Virus record (IMG/VR): IMGVR_UViG_3300045988_134667 | Coordinates: 8,223 to 72,222 of that record | DNA from: a virus | Reading direction: 5' to 3' (one strand) | DNA length: 64,000 nucleotides | Part shown: positions 5,937 through 49,140 of the stretch, piece after piece | How positions within the stretch are numbered: the stretch's first letter is position 1 | Layout of the letters: each line of letters starts with the position of its first letter | The notes under the pieces: generated by a model | What the model saw: only the letters and a program-made list of their open reading frames with translations | What the model was told of the DNA's origin: nothing | The model's database searches: none | Program-made: the position numbers and the translations under genes

Positions 5937-6145
5937 GGAAGATTTTGGAATTGTGGATGGATTTTTGGTTAGATGGGAGTTTGATTTTTTGGTTGTGAAG
6001 TGACTGAAATGCTTGATTTTAGTGGGTTTTGACGATATGTGGCACGATAAGTGGTTTGAAGGGTGAAATTTTGGATTTTGCTTGATTTTGTTGTGGATTT
6101 TGAAGATTGGGAAGATGGTGGATTTTTGAGTTGGTGTGTGGATGA
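5937..6145. repeat. G+T-rich strand-asymmetric block with at least 8 degenerate copies of G(G)ATTTT(T)G; iteron-like, candidate replication origin
   Basis: Seen directly: GATTTTGG, GGATTTTTGG, GATTTTTTGG, GATTTTAG, GGATTTTG, GATTTTG, GGATTTTG and GGATTTTTG within about 200 bp. It sits in the divergent intergenic region between the minus- and plus-strand modules. Confidence 0.45.
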
Positions 6146-8207: not shown

Positions 8208-8276
8208 AAATGATAGCACTTGAAAAAAGTCAAATAATATGCTATCTTTGAATATATAAAAGGAGGCAAAAATTAT

Positions 8277-29043: not shown

Positions 29044-29325
29044 GTGGAATATAGTATGGAAAATTATAAAATTAGTTATAATGGTGATACTCAAATTAAA
29101 AATATTCACCATATAGGTGTTGATTATAATGGAAATTATTATAGCGTGATTTTCGGAGAATATGTAAATGGAGGATTCTTTAGTATTCCGAACTGGAATT
29201 GCGGTGGTGAGTTAGCTGGGCTTAGTGATGTGTTTTGGAATACAGAATCTATTCAGAAATCATTAAAAAGTAAAAGAGCAGCTAAAGCTATTGCAAAAGC
29301 GATAGAAGATTACACAAAGGAGTGA
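29044..29325 (+). CDS. hypothetical protein
   Basis: ORF track. Confidence 0.5.
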   Translation: MEYSMENYKISYNGDTQIKNIHHIGVDYNGNYYSVIFGEYVNGGFFSIPNWNCGGELAGLSDVFWNTESIQKSLKSKRAAKAIAKAIEDYTKE

Positions 29326-30326
29326 TGATTATGTGTTACAAAATAGAAGTACAAAACAAAAATGCTGAAAAGCTTAATAGGAAGTTGGATGAGTTAAACG
29401 CACCACAGTTTTTAAGAGATTACTTGAATGAGTTGGAAAGCAAGAACGGAGCGTTAAATTATCTAGTGGCAATTAAAGATTTTTTACAGTGGTTGATTGA
29501 AAGCAATATTATTAATAAGAAATCAATTTCTGAAATAGAAGTTTCTGATTTTAGTGACTTGCGACCACAAAATATTAGTTCATACCTTAGATACAAGGAA
29601 ACAAATGGAATGTCGCCAACCACAACGGAGACAAGAAAAAATATCATTAAAAGTTTCATACAGGATATTTATTCATACAGAGAATGTTTATTAAGAGAAA
29701 TTTATAGCAACATAGAAGATTTTTACAAAATGATTAAATATAAAGGAATCCCATCTGGTAATAACTTGACTAAAAAACTTCCAACAGAAAAGCAGCTTAA
29801 TGATATGGAAGAGAAAATAATGTGGAAGAAAGATGAATGTGTGAGGAATAGGAATATTGCTATCTTTCGAGTTTTAAGAGGAACTGGAATAAGAGAATCT
29901 GAACTTGCCGGTTTGGATTTATCAGATTTACATTTAGATGAAGAAATGCCATATATTACTATTCTTGGTAAAGGTGTGTACAGAGAAATGCAAAACAGAA
30001 CTGTATATCTTAGCGGATCTGCTCTGAAGGCATTAAGAGAATGGTTAGAATACAGAAGTACCTTAGATAATATTGTAGATACGGAAGCAGTTTTTGTAAA
30101 TAAAAACGGTACACGTACAACAGAAAGAAATATCAAACAGATATTTGAAAATTATGGCAATGGAATTACACCACATATGATGAGACATTATTATGCTAGT
30201 GTAATGAATCAGAATGGGAATCTTGCATTTGTACAACAGCAGCTTGGGCATAGTAGTGTGAATACAACGGTTAATAATTATGCAAACGGAGCTGTTGGAA
30301 TGAAAGAAAAATTAATGGAGATGTGA
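29325..30326 (+). CDS. int: tyrosine recombinase / phage integrase
   Basis: C-terminal catalytic signature RGTGIRESEL ... HMMRHYYAS ... LGHSSVNTTVNNY (R, H-x-x-R and the Tyr nucleophile). Confidence 0.8.
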   Translation: MIMCYKIEVQNKNAEKLNRKLDELNAPQFLRDYLNELESKNGALNYLVAIKDFLQWLIESNIINKKSISEIEVSDFSDLRPQNISSYLRYKETNGMSPTTTETRKNIIKSFIQDIYSYRECLLREIYSNIEDFYKMIKYKGIPSGNNLTKKLPTEKQLNDMEEKIMWKKDECVRNRNIAIFRVLRGTGIRESELAGLDLSDLHLDEEMPYITILGKGVYREMQNRTVYLSGSALKALREWLEYRSTLDNIVDTEAVFVNKNGTRTTERNIKQIFENYGNGITPHMMRHYYASVMNQNGNLAFVQQQLGHSSVNTTVNNYANGAVGMKEKLMEM

Positions 30327-30536: not shown

Positions 30537-30755
30537 CTATTTCTTAGTGTCGCAGATAAAAATATCGTTTGGTGTACAATTTAACGCCTGGCATATTTTC
30601 TCGATAGTATCAAAACGAATGCTTTTTGTTTTTTCATTACAAATGTCACCAATATTATTACTAGAAATTCCAGTAGTTTTAGATAACCAATACTGTGTTT
30701 TCTTTTGATCTGCAAGAATTTGTTTGAGGTTTATTCTCATATTATATTCCTCCAT
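30537..30755 (-). CDS. XRE-family HTH regulator (repressor-like, divergent from the toxin operon)
   Basis: KKTQYWLSKTTGISSNNIGDICNEKTKSIRFDTIEKICQAL. Confidence 0.65.
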   Translation of the reverse strand: MEEYNMRINLKQILADQKKTQYWLSKTTGISSNNIGDICNEKTKSIRFDTIEKICQALNCTPNDIFICDTKK

Positions 30756-30911: not shown

Positions 30912-31277
30912 ATGACTGTAAACTTTGGGTATGTTATGATGATTGACTTTGGAGAAGATAAAATTAATTCAGTTCAAGTAGGAGTAAGACCGGGCGTAAT
31001 CATTCAGAACGACATCGGGAACAAATATTCTCCGACCTCAATAGCTGTTCCTTTGACCAGTGAAATCAAGAAATTAAATATGCCATGTCATAAAGTCCTA
31101 CATATGAACGAACAAAATGGCTTGACGGAAGATTCAATGGTGCTTGGAGAGCAAGTAAGGGTAATTGACAAAAATTCGATATTATACAAAATGGGCACTT
31201 TAAACGATGGTGAATGTGATCTTGTCGTTAAAGCATATTTTGCAAATATACCTAGAAGGAGGGTTAATTGTGGCTGA
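30912..31277 (+). CDS. MazF/PemK-family endoribonuclease toxin-like protein
   Basis: GYVMMIDFGEDKINSVQVGVRPGVIIQNDIGNKYSPTSIAVPLTSEI. RPGVIIQND is the PemK/MazF fold signature. SD AAAGGAGG. Confidence 0.65.
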   Translation: MTVNFGYVMMIDFGEDKINSVQVGVRPGVIIQNDIGNKYSPTSIAVPLTSEIKKLNMPCHKVLHMNEQNGLTEDSMVLGEQVRVIDKNSILYKMGTLNDGECDLVVKAYFANIPRRRVNCG

Positions 31278-31881: not shown

Positions 31882-31954
31882 AGGGCATTCGCCAAGTGGT
31901 AAGGCACAGGATTTTGATTCCTGCATTACATCAGTTCGAATCTGATATGCCCTG
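31882..31954 (+). tRNA. tRNA-Gln (anticodon UUG)
   Basis: Cloverleaf with acceptor AGGGCAT/ATGCCCT, D-arm GCCAAGTGGTAAGGC, anticodon stem CAGGA/TCCTG with loop TTTTGAT, and T-loop TTCGAAT. Architecture is nearly identical to E. coli tRNA-Gln. Confidence 0.8.
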
Positions 31955-32113
31955 CTTTGTGACATTCCACCCGGTATGTTACAGAACGCAAGTGATTTCC
32001 TTGTAAGAGCAAAATGTGTAGTTGCTATAGTTCTACCATAGTTTAATCCACTAACGGATTACAAGCTGATACTATAGAACTTCCTGATAAACTTGCGATA
32101 GTGTCAGCTACTT

Positions 32114-32187
32114 GGATCATTAGCACAATTGGTTAGTGCATTCGGCTCATAACCGAAAGGCTCAGAGTTCAAGTCTCTGATGATCCA
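32114..32187 (+). tRNA. tRNA-Met or initiator/Ile-lysidine type (anticodon CAU)
   Basis: Acceptor GGATCAT/ATGATCC, D-arm GCACAATTGGTTAGTGC, anticodon stem TTCGG/CCGAA with loop CTCATAA, T-arm CAGAGTTCAAGTCTCTG. Confidence 0.8.
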
Positions 32188-32212
32188 TTGCTAAATCAAA
32201 CAAAGAGAGGAG

Positions 32213-37584: not shown

Positions 37585-39642
37585 ATGGATGGATTTATGA
37601 TGTTTAAGAAGGCTTTACAGAAGCACTTCAATGAAATGCAGAAAGAGGCAACACATTTATTTGAGGTAAATGTAGATAAGGATGAATTATGGAATACATA
37701 TCTTGATAGCTTCCCTGCTGGTACAAATAATATTTTCAGAGAGCGTAGGGAACATGATTGTAGTTGTTGTAGACAGTTTATTAAGAATATTGGTTCTGCT
37801 GTCACCATCAAAGATAATCAGATTCACACAATTTGGGAACTGAATCTTGGCGATACAACATACCAGCCAGTGTGCGATGCACTTGACGCTTTTGTAAAGG
37901 CTCATACAGTTACAGATATTTATACAACTAAGTTCCCTAAAATTGGTACAGATTTTAACTTTGAGGAAATCAATGGAAAATCTCATCAGTGGGATCATTT
38001 CTTCTTAGAGCTTCCAAGCAAATTCGTAAATAGAAGTAGTCGTTCTAATGAGGAAGTTAAAGGACAGTTCAGAGATACAAGAAATGTATTTAAGCGTTCT
38101 CTTGATGAAATCACAATGGATGCGCTTGATACGATTCTTGAACTGATTAATTCCAATACGCTTTATAAGGGTGAAGAATGGAAGACTGTGCTCACAGAGT
38201 TTAAAAAGTACAAGAAAGAATATGATAAGTTGACATCTGAATCTGATAAGGAATTGTACGCTTGGGAGAAGTCTGTAACAGCAGGTATTGCAATTGGCAG
38301 AATTAGAAATCATTCTATTGGAACACTCCTTGTAAATGTGAGCGAAGATATGGATTTGGATACTGCTGTTAGAAAATATGAGCAGATTGTAGCACCGAGC
38401 AACTATAAAAGACCCAAGGCCATTTTCACAAAGAAGATGCTTGAGGACGCAAAGAAGACAATTACAGAACTGGGATATATGGATTCATTGCAGCGAAGAT
38501 TTGCTACTTTGAATGATATTACAGTCAATAATGTATTGTTCTCTAATAAGAGTGCTGCAAGAAGAATGAATGGTGCAAATGATATTTTTGGACAGATGGA
38601 AAAGGATGTTGTTGTAAGCCCTAAGAAGTTTTCTAAGGTCGAAGAGATTTCAGCACAGGATTTTATTGATAAGGTACTTCCAACTGCAAAAGAGATTGAA
38701 GCTTTTGTAGAAAATAAACATGAGAAGAACTTTGTTTCTATGATTGCACCTGTTAATCCAGACGCTAAGACAATGTTCAAATGGAATAATGGATTATCTT
38801 GGGCTTATTCAGGAAACATTACTGACTCTGATATGAAGCAGAATGTAAAAGCTGCTGGCGGTAATGTCGATGGTGTACTCAGATTTTCAATTCAGTGGAA
38901 CGAAGATGGACATGACAATTATGACCTTGATGCACATTGTGTTGAGCCAAATGGAACAGAAATCTATTATGGTAGTTACAAAGCACCAAGAATTACTTCT
39001 ATGGGCGGTCAGTTAGATGTTGATGTTATTAATCCATGTGGAAAAGTTGCAGTAGAGAATATTACATGGCAGGATTTATCAAGAATGAGACCAGGAACAT
39101 ATAGATTATTTGTACATCAGTATTCAGGTGCAGTAAGGCATGGATTCAGAGCAGAAGTTGAGTTCAATGGAGAGATTTATTCATTTGATTATAGTAACCC
39201 TATGAGAACTGGCGAGAATGTTCAGGTGGCAGAAGTTACACTTGATGAGAATGGCAACTTCTCAATTAAGGAAAAGCTGTCTGGAAGTTCATCTATTTCA
39301 AGTCGTGAGATTTGGGGTGTAAATACAAATCAGTTTGCTCCTGTATCAGTAATTAGTTACAGTCCAAACTATTTTGATGAACAGGATGGAATTGGTCATA
39401 GACATTTATTCTTCTTCCTGAAGGATTGTGTAAATAGTGAAGAGCCTAATGGATTCTATCTTGAGTTTCTTGACAATGATTTAATGAAGCATAAGAGAGT
39501 ATTTGAGGCTTTAGGTGCTAAGTGTCATGTAGAAGATACTGATGATCAGCTTTCAGGAATTGGATTCTCTATGACAAAGAGAGCAGATTTAGTTGTTAAG
39601 GTTAAGGGCGCAACAGAGCGTATAATGAAGATTAAGTTTTAA
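37585..39642 (+). CDS. large hypothetical protein (685 aa), no recognisable domain
   Basis: Longest ORF in the window; contains REHDCSCCRQF; followed directly by the 39663 gene. Confidence 0.7.
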   Translation: MDGFMMFKKALQKHFNEMQKEATHLFEVNVDKDELWNTYLDSFPAGTNNIFRERREHDCSCCRQFIKNIGSAVTIKDNQIHTIWELNLGDTTYQPVCDALDAFVKAHTVTDIYTTKFPKIGTDFNFEEINGKSHQWDHFFLELPSKFVNRSSRSNEEVKGQFRDTRNVFKRSLDEITMDALDTILELINSNTLYKGEEWKTVLTEFKKYKKEYDKLTSESDKELYAWEKSVTAGIAIGRIRNHSIGTLLVNVSEDMDLDTAVRKYEQIVAPSNYKRPKAIFTKKMLEDAKKTITELGYMDSLQRRFATLNDITVNNVLFSNKSAARRMNGANDIFGQMEKDVVVSPKKFSKVEEISAQDFIDKVLPTAKEIEAFVENKHEKNFVSMIAPVNPDAKTMFKWNNGLSWAYSGNITDSDMKQNVKAAGGNVDGVLRFSIQWNEDGHDNYDLDAHCVEPNGTEIYYGSYKAPRITSMGGQLDVDVINPCGKVAVENITWQDLSRMRPGTYRLFVHQYSGAVRHGFRAEVEFNGEIYSFDYSNPMRTGENVQVAEVTLDENGNFSIKEKLSGSSSISSREIWGVNTNQFAPVSVISYSPNYFDEQDGIGHRHLFFFLKDCVNSEEPNGFYLEFLDNDLMKHKRVFEALGAKCHVEDTDDQLSGIGFSMTKRADLVVKVKGATERIMKIKF

Positions 39643-39662: not shown

Positions 39663-40439
39663 TTGTTAGAAGATTTTGAATTAAAGAAAAATATGTCAAA
39701 AAAATTTTTTAATGGTTCAAAATGGGTTTCTAAAAAATCTGGTGAGTTTGAAATTATAGGTAATTTAAATAAGCCAATTTATGATAAAAAGGGTGTTCCA
39801 TCATATCCGTACTATTTGTGTAGATTTAATGACGGTACAATTGTGATATCAAATAGAAACGTTATTAAAAGTGGTGGAACACACAACCCTAATACTCCTA
39901 CTGTATGTGGTGTTGGTTATCTTGGTATTGGAAAATGGAAAGCGACACAAAATGGAGAAAATACAAAGGAGTATACGTTATGGTCTGGAATGCTATATAG
40001 ATGTTACTGCAATTCGAAATACAGGTATAATTTTAAAACATATGAGAAATGCACCGTAGATTCATCGTGGCATAATTTTCAAACATTCTGCGAAGATATT
40101 ACATCTTTAACAAATTATCAACATTGGAAAAATGAAGAAAATTGGCAACTTGATAAAGATAGTATCGTTCATGGAAATACAATATATAGCAAGGAAACTT
40201 GTATGTTTTTACCACTGATTGATAATGTAAAAGAAATGAATGATAGAACACGAAAAAATCGGCTGACGGGTTTAACATATGTTGCATACTCACCAGATGG
40301 TTTAAGGATAGAATTTAAAAATCAGACTCAATTTGCAAAAGAAAATAATTTAGAAGGTTCATCAATTTGGAAATGTTTAAATGGATCATTAAATACACAT
40401 AAAGGTTGGCGTTTTAAGATTAAAAATAAAGGAGAATAA
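39663..40439 (+). CDS. putative DNA-binding or endonuclease-associated protein (W/Y-rich WSGMLYRCY...Y..Y...C.V...W..F..F motif)
   Basis: TTG start with SD AGGAGA plus 7 nt. The motif resembles those in phage HNH/AP2-type proteins; low confidence. Confidence 0.45.
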   Translation: MLEDFELKKNMSKKFFNGSKWVSKKSGEFEIIGNLNKPIYDKKGVPSYPYYLCRFNDGTIVISNRNVIKSGGTHNPNTPTVCGVGYLGIGKWKATQNGENTKEYTLWSGMLYRCYCNSKYRYNFKTYEKCTVDSSWHNFQTFCEDITSLTNYQHWKNEENWQLDKDSIVHGNTIYSKETCMFLPLIDNVKEMNDRTRKNRLTGLTYVAYSPDGLRIEFKNQTQFAKENNLEGSSIWKCLNGSLNTHKGWRFKIKNKGE

Positions 40440-40443
40440 AAAA

Positions 40444-40830
40444 ATGAAAGAAAAATTATTTATTGATGCAACTCGTAATAACTATCAGTTCCCATTTAGA
40501 GGAATGATTAACGTAATTGATTTGTGGGATTTGTCTCTCACAAATCTGGACTCAGTGTTTAAAACACTCAATGCAGAAGCAAAGAAGTCTGAGGAAGAAA
40601 GTCTTCTGAATACTAAGTCAAAGGAAGATGAGGAGGTTTCTAATAAGATTGAAATTGTCAAGTATATTGTTGGCGTGAAACTGGATGAGAAGAAGAAGAG
40701 AGAAGACGCTAAGAAGAATGCTGAGATGAGACAGAGGTTGCTTGAAATCAAGGCTAAGAGACAGGATGCAGCACTTGAAAATATGTCTGATGAGGATCTG
40801 GATAAGGCACTTGCAGAATTAGGAGAATAA
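40444..40830 (+). CDS. Lys/Glu-rich coiled-coil protein
   Basis: ORF track; followed by an AGGTCGGT/ACCGACCT hairpin at 40838-40862. Confidence 0.55.
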   Translation: MKEKLFIDATRNNYQFPFRGMINVIDLWDLSLTNLDSVFKTLNAEAKKSEEESLLNTKSKEDEEVSNKIEIVKYIVGVKLDEKKKREDAKKNAEMRQRLLEIKAKRQDAALENMSDEDLDKALAELGE

Positions 40831-40889
40831 GATAATTAGGTCGGTTGATAAATGACCGACCTTAATATAAAAGAAAAGGAGACAAAAAG

Positions 40890-42467
40890 ATGAGTAGTAT
40901 TTTAAGCAACTTAGGAATGGTAATTCCGATTGTAGCAATTGTATTAGTTGTAGTTGGTTTGTTAGTAGCAGGTTATGTAAAGGCTTCACCTGATAGAGCA
41001 TACATAATTTCTGGACTTAGGAAAGAACCAAAGGTGTTAATTGGTAAAGCTGGAATCAAGATTCCGTTTTTAGAAAAGAAAGATGAGCTGAATTTGCAGT
41101 TGATTCCAATTGATGTAAAGACAAGTAGTGCAGTTCCAACAGCAGATTATATTAATATTAATGTAGATGCTGCGGTCAACATAAAGGTAAGTTCAGACAA
41201 TACAAGATTACAGCTTGCAGCTCAAAACTTCTTAAATAAGCCAGTTGATTATATTGGAAGGGTGGCAAGAGAAGTTCTCGAAGGAAATATGAGAGAAATT
41301 GTTGGCAAGATGAATTTAGAGGAAATGGTTTCAGATAGACAGAAATTTGCCGAACTTGTAAAAGAGAATGCAGAACCAGATCTTGCAGCTATGGGACTTG
41401 ACATTGTAAGTTTCAATGTACAGAACTTTGTTGATGAAAATGGTGTTATTGAGAACCTTGGCGTAGATAATATTGTTAAGATTCAGAAAAATGCAGCTAT
41501 CTCAAGAGCCGAAAGTGAAAAAGAGATTGCAAAAGCAAGAGCTATCGCAAAGAAGGAAGCAAACGATGCGGAAGTAAGTTCTGAATTAGAAATTGCAAAT
41601 GCACAGGCTGAAGCTCAGAAGAAGAAAGCAATCGTCCAGGCTAATGCTAATAGAGAATCACAGGAAGCTCAGATTGAAGCAGATACTCTTATTGCACAGA
41701 AAGAGAATGAACTTGCAATTAAAAAGGCAGAATTACAGAAAGATGCTGATACAAAGAAAGCAAGTGCAGATGCAGCATATAATATTCAGCAGGAAACAGA
41801 GAGAAAGACAGTTGAGATTGCAACTGCTGATGCAAATCTTGCCCGTCAGGAAAAGGCTATTACTTTAAAAGAGAAAGAAGTAGAACTTACAGAGAGAACT
41901 CTTGAGGCAACAGTAAAGAAACAGGCAGAGGCAGATAAATACGCAAAACAGCAGGAAGCAGATGCTAAGTTATACGAAACTCAGAGACAGTCAGAAGCAA
42001 AACTTTTCGAGAGGCAGAAGAATGCTGAAGCAGAAAAGTTTGAGCAGGAAAAGAAAGCAGAAGCTGAAAAAGCAACAGCAGATGCCAACAGATATACAAT
42101 GGAACAGGAGGCAGAAGGTATTCGCAGCAAAGGACGGGCAGAAGCGGATGCGATTAAAGCAAAAGCATTAGCAGAAGCAGAAGGTATTGAAAAGAAAGCA
42201 GAAGCCATGAAACAGATGGGCGAAGCTGCGGTATTAGAGATGTACTTCAAAGCGATGCCTGAGATTGCGAAGAATATTGCAGAACCGCTTGCGAAGGTTG
42301 ATAAGATTACAATGTACGGTGATGGAAATTCATCTAAACTGATGAAAGATATTATGAATACTCTTAACCAGGTAACAGATGGAATGAAAGAATCTACTGG
42401 CATTGATCTTAGTTCTGTACTTGCTGGTTTTGCAGGTGCAAAGATTGCTGACAAAACACAGAAATAA
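40890..42467 (+). CDS. flotillin / SPFH (band-7) family membrane protein (FloT/YuaG-like)
   Basis: N-terminal TM segment (VIPIVAIVLVVVGLLVAGYV), an SPFH core, a long Ala/Glu/Lys-rich flotillin-repeat region (EAQKKKA, AEAEK), and a 525-aa length typical of bacterial FloT. Confidence 0.75.
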   Translation: MSSILSNLGMVIPIVAIVLVVVGLLVAGYVKASPDRAYIISGLRKEPKVLIGKAGIKIPFLEKKDELNLQLIPIDVKTSSAVPTADYININVDAAVNIKVSSDNTRLQLAAQNFLNKPVDYIGRVAREVLEGNMREIVGKMNLEEMVSDRQKFAELVKENAEPDLAAMGLDIVSFNVQNFVDENGVIENLGVDNIVKIQKNAAISRAESEKEIAKARAIAKKEANDAEVSSELEIANAQAEAQKKKAIVQANANRESQEAQIEADTLIAQKENELAIKKAELQKDADTKKASADAAYNIQQETERKTVEIATADANLARQEKAITLKEKEVELTERTLEATVKKQAEADKYAKQQEADAKLYETQRQSEAKLFERQKNAEAEKFEQEKKAEAEKATADANRYTMEQEAEGIRSKGRAEADAIKAKALAEAEGIEKKAEAMKQMGEAAVLEMYFKAMPEIAKNIAEPLAKVDKITMYGDGNSSKLMKDIMNTLNQVTDGMKESTGIDLSSVLAGFAGAKIADKTQK

Positions 42468-42483
42468 TTATGAAATGTTTATG

Positions 42484-42520
42484 GGTTGGTTGGTTCTATA
42501 GCCAATCAGCCCTATTATTA
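42484..42520 (+). terminator. terminator-like hairpin GGGTTGGTTGG / CCAATCAGCCC followed by a T-rich tract
   Basis: Stem with one G-U pair, followed by TATTATTAT. Confidence 0.5.
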
Positions 42521-42578
42521 TACATAATTAAAACAATAGAAAGAACGCACATTTTATATGGGATTTTTGAGGTAATAC

Positions 42579-42758
42579 ATGAATATTTTAAACATTATTT
42601 TATTGATTATTGGAATTTTTAACCTTATTGTTGGTATAGCATGGACGAAAAAGAATATTATCAACCTTGTGTTCAAATTACTGTTCTTGGCAGGTGGTGG
42701 ATATTTAGTATTCTATGCTTTATATTCAAGTAACATTCTAATTGCTTTAAACAAGTAA
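42579..42758 (+). CDS. small two-TM membrane protein (59 aa) immediately downstream of the flotillin gene
   Basis: MNILNIILLIIGIFNLIVGIAW...LLFLAGGGYLVFYALY; frame verified manually. Confidence 0.45.
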   Translation: MNILNIILLIIGIFNLIVGIAWTKKNIINLVFKLLFLAGGGYLVFYALYSSNILIALNK

Positions 42759-45412: not shown

Positions 45413-46933
45413 ATGGAATTAACACGTCTGCTAAAACCATAGGAAAAAAATAATTATTGTGAGTTAAGTGTAATTGAGCTTTGTAGTGGTATTGGTGCGC
45501 AGATGAAGGGAATTGATAATACTCATCTATTTAATGCAAATATGATTGCAACAGCAGATTTAGACAAAGAAGTAGTAGTTAGTTATGCTGCAATGCATTG
45601 TGGTTTGACTAATGAGATGATTGAAAACTATGAAGATTATCCAAGCAAAGAAGAAATGGTAAGACAGCTTACAGATAAGAGACTTGGATATGATTTTAAG
45701 AAAGATGTTCCGTATGATTGGGAAAAACTTTCACGAAAGAAGAACAAGACAAAAGGTATTGAGAAATATTGGTTAGCAGACCATATTTCACATAATCTTG
45801 GCGATATGATGCAGATTGAGTCACTGCCATATAGTGATTTACTTACATACTCGACTCCATGCACAGATTTGTCAATCGCCGGTAAACAGGAAGGATTAAA
45901 GTGGACATGTCATGATTGTGGTTGTGAATATGATCCATCAGAATTAGATGTAGATACTCGTTATACTTGCCCTAATTGTGGCAGTCACAACATTAAATCA
46001 ACTCGTTCAGGTTTATTGTATGAAGTTGAGAGACTTCTTGTAAAAGCAAAAGAGAATAATACATTACCAAAGTATTTGCTTATGGAGAATGTAGATGCTC
46101 TTGTATCAAAGAAGTATATTGACAGTTTTAAGGATTGGCTGATTCGACTTGATAATTTGGGATATAACTCATATTATCAGACAATCAATGCAAAGAATAC
46201 AGGTATTCCACAGAATCGAAATAGAATCTTCTGTATCTCTATTCGTAAGGATATTGATACCAAGTCTTTTGAATTTCCACAGCCTTTTGATACAGGAATC
46301 AGATTAAAGGATTTATTAGAAACAGATAGCAGTGTTTTGGAGAAATATTTCTTATCTGATGAAGTACAGAAAAGACTTCAGATAACAGATCCAAAATTTG
46401 AAAAGAATATTGTTGGTACTACAAAACCTGAATTCAGAACTATCGGTCAGAGAGATTTAGTTTATCAGCAGGATTCAGTAATGGGTACTTTAGTGGCAAC
46501 TGATTATAAACAACCAAAACAGATTCTTGCCAATTCAAATAATATAAATAGACTTTTTAATATTTATGGTGAAAATAAAGGAACTGGATTTGCAGGAAAT
46601 GTTTGGGATAAAGATTATATTTCTCCAACAATAACAACATGTCAAGGAGGAAATCGGCAACCAATGGTCGAAGAAGAGAGAGACAATTTGAGAGTTGTGA
46701 GAAAGCTTACGCCAAAAGAGTGCCATAGGCTTATGGGATTCGATGATGTTGATTATGAGAACTGTAAAGCAGTTGGAATGTCTGATACTCAGGGATATAA
46801 ACAAAGCGGTAACAGTATAGTAACAACTTGCATCTCTTTGTTGATTGAGCATTTATATAAGGCTCAGTATGACAATACATATATTTGTACAGATGAGAAG
46901 ATGGTAAATTTTCATCAGCCACAAGCGGATTAA
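45413..46933 (+). CDS. DNA (cytosine-5)-methyltransferase with a zinc-ribbon insertion. Motif I is encoded upstream of the track ORF start (45503), separated from a possible ATG (45413) by an in-frame TAG (45440-45442).
   Basis: Within track ORF 45503..46933: motif IV STPCTDLS, motif VI LLMENVDAL, motif VIII GIPQNRNRIF, motif X GNSIVTT, and an inserted CHDCGC...CPNCGSH. Motif I (IELCSGIGAQ) is read at 45473-45502 in the same frame, with no ATG, GTG or TTG between the TAG and 45503. Confidence 0.7.
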
Positions 46934-47780: not shown

Positions 47781-49140
47781 TACAATAGAGAGTCAGTTAT
47801 TGACTCTCTATAACAGAGGAGGTGAAACAATATAAATAAAGCGGAAAGACATGTAATAAACAAAAACCATCCAATGTATTTAGCTTGTGATAACTTATGT
47901 TTTCTGGCAAAGAATATGTATAATTTATGCAATTATACAATTCGCCAAGAATTCTTTGAGACAAAGAAAGTTAAGAAGTATGGTGACTTAAATAAGGAAC
48001 TAAAACATACAGATGCTTTTATGGAACTTGGATCAAATGCAGCACAGATGGTTACAAAAGCATTGTGTAAGTCTTGGAAATCATTTCTTGTATCAGTTAA
48101 AGATTATACTATTCATCCAGAAAAGTATTTGGGAAAACCTAAGATACCAGCTTATAAAAAGAAAGACGGTAGATTTGTTTGTACTTTAACTAATATGCAG
48201 ACTAAAGTGAAAGATGGTTATTTGTATTTTGCTTTTAAGAGAATGAAAGAGTATAACAATTTAATTCTCACAAAAGTTACAGGTCATCATTTGTCTACGA
48301 GAATTGTTCCAAAAGGTGGTTGTTATATTATTGAAATTGTTTATGACGATGAAAAGCAATGTAAAAGTGAATTGGATAGAAACAGAATTGCTTCGATTGA
48401 TTTAGGTGTAAATAACTTTGTAACAATGGTAAATAACATAGGAGAATCTTCTATTGTTATAAATGGCAAAGGAATTAAATCTTATAATCAGTATTGGAAT
48501 AAAAAGGTTTCTAAATTAAGAAGTATTGCGAAAACCGTAAATGGATCTGATTGGACTAAACAGATGCAGAGCCTTACAAATAAAAGATATTTCAAGATGG
48601 AGTATTTCATGCATTGTGCGAGCAAATGGATTGTTAGTTATTGTGTGAAACATAATATTGGAACACTTGTTATTGGTAAGAATGATGGTTGGAAACAGAA
48701 AACAAATATGTGTAAAATTACAAATCAGACTTTTACTCAAATACCATACGAAAGTTTTCTTGAAAAGCTTGGATATAAGTGTGAAGAAACTGGTATAGAT
48801 TTGATTAAAACAGAAGAAGCTTATACTTCAGGAACTTCTTTCTTAGACAATGAGTTACCTGTTAAAGAAAATTATAACAAGTCAAGAAGAGTTTATAGAG
48901 GATTATTTAAAAGCAACAACGGAGAATATATAAATGCCGATGTTAATGGTGCATTTCAAATAATGCGTAAAGTATTCTCAAATGTAAAAGCAGATGAGAT
49001 AGTGGGTGCATATTCACACCCTGTAATTATAAATTTGTAATTGTAAATGGAAAATAAAAAGCCAATGAATGCCAAGATTGATTCAATGCATGAGAAAAAT
49101 CTGTTTAAATTACAGCCAATGCCAAGTTTTGTGTATCAGG
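47781..49140 (+). mobile_element. IS200/IS605-family element carrying tnpB only (IS1341-like); right boundary approximate
   Basis: Perfect subterminal hairpin ATAGAGAGTCA-gttat-TGACTCTCTAT at 47785-47811, immediately upstream of tnpB. Repeated GCCAATG(A)ATGCCAAG segments lie downstream of tnpB, in the expected right-end / guide-RNA region. Confidence 0.55.
47874..49040 (+). CDS. tnpB: TnpB (IS605 OrfB-type RuvC-like RNA-guided nuclease family)
   Basis: RuvC-I IASIDLGVNNF, RuvC-II IGKNDGW, RuvC-III ADVNGAFQIMRKV. The usual CxxC zinc finger appears to be replaced. Confidence 0.7.
   Translation: MYLACDNLCFLAKNMYNLCNYTIRQEFFETKKVKKYGDLNKELKHTDAFMELGSNAAQMVTKALCKSWKSFLVSVKDYTIHPEKYLGKPKIPAYKKKDGRFVCTLTNMQTKVKDGYLYFAFKRMKEYNNLILTKVTGHHLSTRIVPKGGCYIIEIVYDDEKQCKSELDRNRIASIDLGVNNFVTMVNNIGESSIVINGKGIKSYNQYWNKKVSKLRSIAKTVNGSDWTKQMQSLTNKRYFKMEYFMHCASKWIVSYCVKHNIGTLVIGKNDGWKQKTNMCKITNQTFTQIPYESFLEKLGYKCEETGIDLIKTEEAYTSGTSFLDNELPVKENYNKSRRVYRGLFKSNNGEYINADVNGAFQIMRKVFSNVKADEIVGAYSHPVIINL

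Follow-up and report, generated by a model that had tools for sequence, protein, structure and literature searches.

A 64,000-nucleotide window of viral DNA (positions 8,223 to 72,222 of IMG/VR record IMGVR_UViG_3300045988_134667, hereafter the window) carries a gene for a 525-amino acid (aa) protein which, by profile, sequence and fold matches, is an intact, full-length flotillin, a membrane scaffold of the cage-forming SPFH type whose oligomeric assembly in this case is predicted. Comparison with bacterial and viral relatives indicates that an ancestor of the phage captured the gene from a Lachnospiraceae chromosome, and that it now occupies a discrete cassette between two resident phage genes that encode proteins of 128 and 59 aa. 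We consider it reasonably probable that this captured cassette, which is held intact under selection, supplements the membrane scaffold of the lysogen or infected cell.

The identity of the 525-aa protein follows from several kinds of match. Two Pfam families score above their curated cut-offs: Band_7 (the SPFH domain, PF01145) at residues 35-211 (E=3.1e-22, 79.9 bits; cut-off 23.6 bits) and Flot (PF15975) at residues 416-482 (E=2.1e-9, 38 bits; cut-off 27 bits). A preliminary description of this DNA had proposed a phage-encoded full-length flotillin and had named a Band_7 or flotillin profile match as the check on that proposal, and both were found. Human flotillin-1 in the PDB is also matched by sequence (E=1e-49). 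The N-terminus has a single strongly hydrophobic segment at about residues 8-28 (Kyte-Doolittle 19-residue windows peak at 3.1 over residues 1-35) that is a predicted membrane anchor, and residues 201-450 are rich in glutamate and alanine (E+A 36-44%, E+A+K+Q 56-70%), so the N-terminal transmembrane segment, SPFH domain and EA-rich region that had been described are all present, in an ORF with exactly the coordinates given. An AlphaFold monomer (mean pLDDT 61, 75-86 in the SPFH core, pTM 0.32), which we take for architecture only, has a helix at residues 2-27, an alpha/beta core at about residues 66-190 and helices over residues 192-468. In a Foldseek search it most resembles the flotillin cages 9l3g and 9bq2 and, after these, HflK/C, stomatin and prohibitin, and the modeled alpha/beta core gives target-normalized TM-scores of 0.7-0.8 against stomatin and flotillin SPFH structures. 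The likeness to bacterial FloT that was also claimed holds at the family level and not at the level of the equivalog: the NCBIfam FloT equivalog model NF058507 gives 271.4 bits against a cut-off of 700 bits, and we therefore call the protein a member of the flotillin family and not a FloT equivalog.

Where did the phage obtain this gene? Its nearest bacterial homologues (P0003 and P0074; 91% and 89% aa identity, respectively) are encoded on contigs of 160-254 kb and 34% GC, in the company of genes for an ECF transporter, TruA, DAHP synthase, DAP dehydrogenase and ribosomal proteins L13/S9. Matches in reference genomes number more than 534, nearly all of them titled Lachnospiraceae, and the best of these (Bariatricus and Catenibacillus, 87-88%) likewise have housekeeping neighbors. 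In a bootstrapped neighbor-joining tree the window flotillin, that of its sister phage L004 and P0001 form a clade with 100% bootstrap support which is nested, again at 100%, within a Lachnospiraceae subclade, and because the phage clade is nested in this way the direction of transfer would have been from bacterium to phage. The Lachnospiraceae origin in turn makes a low-GC lineage of that family the probable host of the phage. A recent transfer from the host is ruled out by the DNA identity of 81% to the closest chromosomal gene, that of P0003, to which similarity is limited to the coding sequence and synonymous divergence (dS) is saturated; this saturation points to an old capture. The 55 aa differences from the P0003 protein are concentrated in the transmembrane anchor (18) and the C-terminal tail, and the core of the protein (residues ~30-500) is about 95% identical to this chromosomal copy.

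The borders of the insertion can be read from relatives with an empty site. Similarity to these phages ends at position 40830, the stop codon of the 128-aa gene, and restarts at 42533-42544, so that the cassette of ~1.7 kb (40831-42532) comprises a hairpin, a ribosome-binding site, the flotillin gene and a second hairpin. At the empty sites the intervening ~70 nt are an AT-rich 18-bp hairpin and then a short T-run (-20.7 kcal/mol, z=-4.7), and the 1.7-kb cassette evidently took the place of this terminator-like element. We made a census of 43 relatives that carry both flanking genes: the spacer between them is 108-117 nt in 35, other, unrelated small open reading frames (ORFs; 54-127 aa) are present as cargo in 7, and the remaining one (L092, the same contig as L004) has the flotillin gene there, as does the window. 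By this count the junction is an insertion hotspot, and the flotillin gene fits the definition of a moron, namely a discrete insertion, variably present, between genes that are adjacent in relatives. When the non-coding flanks of the cassette were searched for a bacterial donor locus or for a repeat elsewhere in the window, only sister phages matched. The 5' hairpin (-13.7 kcal/mol, z=-4.8) is followed by a strong Shine-Dalgarno sequence 8 nt ahead of the flotillin ATG, and the whole 59-nt 5' flank is 100% identical in the window and L004, in which the surrounding DNA is only about 91% identical; this suggests a conserved regulatory role for the flank. The terminator-like hairpin that had been noticed 3' of the flotillin stop codon is indeed there (13 pairs, -21.3 kcal/mol, z=-3.7), with a tail, TATTATTATA, that lacks a clean T-run.

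Between the window flotillin and that of L004 the nonsynonymous divergence (dN) is 0.005 and dS is 0.21 (dN/dS=0.023), which indicates strong purifying selection inside the phage lineage, and the window protein keeps every residue that is invariant across an alignment of 25 sequences. A protein 99% identical to it (P0240) occurs in at least 119 index blocks, always 3' of DUF8224 and 129-aa genes, and an identical protein is present on another ENA contig. P0240 is NCBI DAH04704.1, 'MAG TPA: flotillin [Bacteriophage sp.]', and as this entry had already been deposited the flotillin annotation itself is not new. The 99%-identical flotillins of the P0240-P0244 contigs and of L193 and L195 lie on contigs of 250-606 kb, far above the ~150 kb of the viral contigs; these could be integrated prophages, or else concatemeric or mis-joined assemblies.

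Separate acquisitions of flotillin, seen as separate clades in different gene contexts, have also occurred in other large phages of the gut, in at least four or five lineages. One group, of ~160 kb, encodes after its NAD-salvage genes a 486-aa flotillin that is about 69% identical to the window copy and forms its own clade; its nearest bacterial relatives (Longibaculum and Coprobacillus) are just ~71% identical to it. In a 105-205-kb group (L005, L034, L040 and L191) the flotillin gene adjoins a 'Sequestin' gene and is followed at a greater distance by DnaB, AAA_24 and DUF2828 genes, and L006, the L032-L042 group, L041 and GenBank MT835492 have further separate flotillins. Among GenBank phages flotillin matches are present in just 10 of 50,697 records, and most of these are fragments. 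No conserved partner gene was found beside the flotillins of the other phage lineages, the neighbors being NAD-salvage genes, 'Sequestin', the 685-aa gene (below) or unannotated ORFs. In another lineage, of ~179 kb, the gene immediately 3' of flotillin (L191:10650-11114 and L192:9472-9936) matches PF21825 'Sequestin'. An NAD-salvage cluster that related phages carry near flotillin (L194:19514-21581, L196:15858-20297 and L007:3331-5588) includes NAMPT/NAPRTase, NAD synthase, NADAR, an isochorismatase-family gene and a PRPP-synthase-like gene. The sister phage L196 also has a second SPFH protein (L196:5055-5924, 289 aa, Band_7 E=2.6e-25) ~4 kb upstream of its flotillin, and thus two SPFH genes in one phage; the window is without the second, shorter one. 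A literature search within one library of papers for a studied phage flotillin returned only passing annotations, in which phage SPFH genes are mentioned and their function called 'unclear' (PMC13239085, PMC13384950), and the phage Perkons, which integrates into the floA gene of its host (PMC13245101).

What might the flotillin do for the phage? Its most likely role is to add flotillin scaffold to the membrane of the infected or lysogenic cell. The protein would be made in the lysogen or during infection, would enter the host membrane via its N-terminal helix and would form cages, either by itself or together with the host protein that it so closely resembles. Flotillin dosage would be raised or sustained in this way, and the organization, fluidity and integrity of the membrane and the membrane complexes that depend on them would be preserved, to the gain of the phage or lysogen. 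Retention under selection of a flotillin nearly identical to that of the host, together with independent acquisitions elsewhere, suggests that infection or lysogeny is sensitive to flotillin dosage. Several points weigh against this interpretation. Most close IMG/VR relatives are without the flotillin gene, which is therefore dispensable. The promoter scan called no sigma-70-type promoter in the 59-nt 5' flank (TTGATA at 40845-40850 and TATAAA at 40866-40871, with a 15-nt spacer, were spotted by eye only and were not called by the scan). The evidence for a temperate lifestyle (below) consists entirely of domain matches. The tree is a neighbor-joining tree in which support within the Lachnospiraceae subclade is weak (22-56%), so that it does not single out an exact donor. 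Finally, the identity to the flotillin of the host is as compatible with a protein that interferes with host assemblies as with one that supplements them.

Exclusion, lysis timing and interference with defense had been put forward as possible roles in the preliminary description. Accessory genes at the hotspots of temperate phages are often exclusion or anti-defense genes, and the flotillin might accordingly be imagined to serve superinfection exclusion or counter-defense, the membrane being remodeled against entry of competing DNA or stabilized against abortive-infection (Abi) pore-formers or premature lysis. The 'Sequestin' gene that adjoins flotillin in another phage lineage agrees with such a role, as do two indirect links from the literature: membrane-surveillance proteins that are genetically linked to flotillin alter the outcome of phage infection in Bacillus subtilis (PMC8844932), and the phage-shock protein PspA is recruited by SPFH proteins (PMC8581546). 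We nevertheless think this role unlikely, given that no defense-system profile (PADLOC, E<=0.01) matched the flotillin or four of its neighbors, and that the protein differs little from a housekeeping flotillin of the host and carries no extra domain.

Interference is less probable still. Here the phage copy would co-assemble with the host flotillin and perturb regulation of the FtsH protease, signaling or entry into sporulation. A core so close to that of the chromosomal protein makes mixed oligomers plausible, while the transmembrane anchor and the C-terminal tail differ; transmembrane segments, though, diverge fast anyway. The Escherichia coli HflK/C SPFH cages, which enclose FtsH, rank among the fold matches, and flotillin overproduction alters differentiation and shape in B. 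subtilis, according to the citation of Mielich-Suss 2013 in PMC13245101. On the other hand, the retention of every invariant alignment column and the low dN/dS are as in a normally functioning protein.

The preliminary description had also suggested that the 59-aa two-transmembrane protein encoded downstream is an NfeD-like partner of the flotillin, which would make the two genes an SPFH-NfeD-like module in which the small protein anchors or regulates the large one (as in the pairs YuaF-FloT and YbbJ-QmcA). The small ORF is where it was said to be, and almost the whole of its product is made up of two hydrophobic segments, with a TKKN loop between them. The gene is a real one, since its 59-codon frame is kept in 45 related full-length loci with a ratio of nonsynonymous to synonymous polymorphism (pN/pS) of about 0.20; it was found, 83-90% identical, in 52 viral contigs. 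Automatic gene callers missed it in some assemblies (L190:2873-3178 and L194:11582-12095), and it is therefore likely to be under-annotated in databases. The two genes lie side by side on one strand, their products are both membrane proteins, and they also occur together in the sister phages L004, L193 and L195. Yet the co-occurrence check that had been proposed for the small protein came out negative: 51 of the 52 contigs that bear its gene have no flotillin in the flanks examined, and in related contigs the gene is usually directly 3' of the 128-aa gene. Two relatives with flotillin, L194 and L196, either lack the 59-aa gene or have a truncated copy of it, no homologue of it was found near other phage flotillins, and in five distinct bacterial flotillin contexts there was neither an NfeD gene nor a homologue of the 59-aa gene nearby. 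In the window a stable hairpin lies between the two genes, and the smaller one has its own ribosome-binding site (GAGG). No NfeD/OB-fold domain (PF01957) was detected in the 59-aa protein by Pfam even at E<=10, and the protein is too short for an OB fold; its sole Pfam match at that threshold, to DUF6552 (E=0.16), is a chance match, and it is otherwise without a match in Pfam, PHROG, PADLOC or NCBIfam. DUF3784, a small membrane protein encoded 3' of one bacterial flotillin, was tried as a possible relative and gave no Pfam signal. Because the domain and conserved co-occurrence tests are both negative the module idea fails; we give it very little credence and take the 59-aa gene, from its distribution, to be an unrelated resident phage gene, the neighbor of the flotillin gene and not its partner, so that a tempting but wrong two-gene annotation is removed.

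That the flotillin gene is a neutral passenger or an assembly artefact (a chimeric contig, or host DNA carried along recently by hitch-hiking), as its absence from most IMG/VR relatives might suggest, is scarcely credible: the dN/dS between phage copies (dS 0.21 against dN 0.005), the prevalence of P0240 and the identical protein on an ENA contig rule it out, and identical junctions recur in many independent assemblies, the reading frame is still intact after an old capture (dS saturated against bacterial genes) and several phage lineages acquired flotillin independently.

Table 1. Features of the window discussed in the text, with the flotillin cassette and its borders first
Feature	Coordinates	Strand	Basis or remark
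Flotillin gene, 525 aa: transmembrane helix, SPFH domain, long E/A-rich helices, C-terminal Flot region	40890-42467	+	Pfam, PDB match, AlphaFold
Cassette 5' flank: hairpin 40838-40862 and Shine-Dalgarno sequence AAAGGAGA at 40875-40882	40831-40889	+	Folding, sequence reading
Cassette 3' flank with terminator-like hairpin 42483-42512	42468-42532	+	Terminator scan, folding
Resident 128-aa phage gene; its stop codon is the left insertion border	40444-40830	+	phrog_2018, E=3.3e-36
Resident 59-aa two-transmembrane phage gene, neighbor of flotillin	42579-42758	+	Conservation, co-occurrence
Tyrosine integrase	29322-30326		Domain match; ~10 kb upstream of flotillin
Divergent Cro/C1-type HTH gene	30537-30755	-	Domain match
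PemK/MazF toxin	30912-31277		Domain match
tRNA-Gln and tRNA-Met	31882-32188		
685-aa gene	37585-39642		phrog_1735 / PF26675 (DUF8224)
HNH / I-HmuI-like homing endonuclease	39663-40439		phrog_2081, E=8e-55
DNA methyltransferase	45503-46933		
TnpB-type gene	47874-49040		OrfB_IS605 and Cas12f1-like TNB domains

The setting of the cassette is that of a large phage. Small co-directional genes that match PHROGs make up the flotillin region, and more than 50 IMG/VR contigs, each about 150-160 kb long, have the neighborhood in common; by Megablast the region has no match among GenBank phages. The 685-aa protein encoded upstream is 61% identical to those of Herelleviridae Bacillus phages such as TsarBomba. 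The integrase, Cro/C1-type HTH and PemK toxin genes ~10 kb upstream of flotillin make the phage a probably temperate one, and overall it is probably a large (~150 kb) temperate phage related to Herelleviridae-type myoviruses. Two tRNA genes follow the lysogeny-like module.

Several other features of this DNA were noted in passing. The 685-aa gene is conserved in 556 GenBank phage records, 459 of which cover >=80% of the protein, in phages whose hosts include Bacillus, Salmonella, Klebsiella, Caulobacter and Vibrio, and it has no known function. The homing endonuclease gene has itself been inserted between the genes for the 685-aa and 128-aa proteins. Most relatives lack it; L108 has a 100% identical copy, and in L065, L077, L081 and L094 variants of ~48% identity take its place. 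The TnpB-type gene lies in the phage accessory region, with the DNA methyltransferase gene upstream of it. The GC skew and the coding strand both flip near position 6000, to the left of which the ORFs are on the minus strand with negative skew and to the right of which, through the rest of the window, the genes are on the plus strand with positive skew. Three arrangements near the 685-aa/128-aa gene pair, and the SPFH 'lipoproteins' of Vi01-like phages, had raised the idea that an SPFH protein is a fixed companion of that pair; it was rejected, as TsarBomba has an AAA ATPase at this place and pCD1602_4 has RtcB.

A canonical flotillin acquired from the host is unremarkable as accessory cargo of a phage, and it is the repeated independent capture, under strong constraint, that is modestly interesting. 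We raise, as a tentative idea, that large, probably temperate phages of gut Firmicutes captured host flotillins at least four or five separate times and keep them under strong purifying selection, and that takeover of the membrane-microdomain scaffold of the host is a general phage strategy. If this is true, such a takeover might make the membrane more resistant to abortive-infection pore formers or to premature lysis, exclude competing phages or organize membrane-bound phage processes. Phage flotillins would then also be a natural gain-of-function handle on the role of bacterial flotillins, which is still debated (raft scaffold, fluidity regulator, or chaperone of protease or secretion complexes). 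The 91% match to a chromosomal gene, for its part, suggests Lachnospiraceae as the hosts of an uncultured family of gut phages of ~150 kb.

How does the phage protein compare with known flotillins and with other phage-borne genes? The chromosomal Lachnospiraceae flotillins (annotated as 'flotillin family protein' or 'YqiK') equal it in length and architecture and are 87-91% identical to it in aa sequence; the window copy differs from them in its phage location and unrelated flanks and in its diverged transmembrane helix and last ~25 residues. In P0003 (a 160-kb chromosomal contig) and the other nearest locus the flotillin gene is solitary, with an intergenic gap to either side and without an NfeD neighbor. 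B. subtilis FloT (YuaG), E. coli YqiK and eukaryotic flotillin-1/2 have the same Band_7 and Flot pair and E/A-rich helices as the window protein, which unlike B. subtilis FloT has no yuaF-type NfeD gene in its operon. Among phage-borne proteins, DAH04704.1 is at 99% identity essentially the same gene, and the 'flotillin family protein' of Vibrio phage KIT04, also a phage-borne SPFH protein, aligns weakly, at 25% identity and with 28% of the query covered. In Vi01-like, GIB1, X1 and Erwinia jumbo phages there are likewise SPFH 'lipoproteins' (phrog_200, to which the window flotillin has a weak match, E=2.5e-5), but these are short and have no Flot region. The cassette as a whole resembles phage morons and host-derived auxiliary genes in being a hairpin-bounded single-gene unit of host origin with its own ribosome-binding site and variable presence, and it differs from them in that the scan called no promoter for it and in its cargo, which is a membrane scaffold and not a metabolic enzyme, toxin or surface-modification gene.

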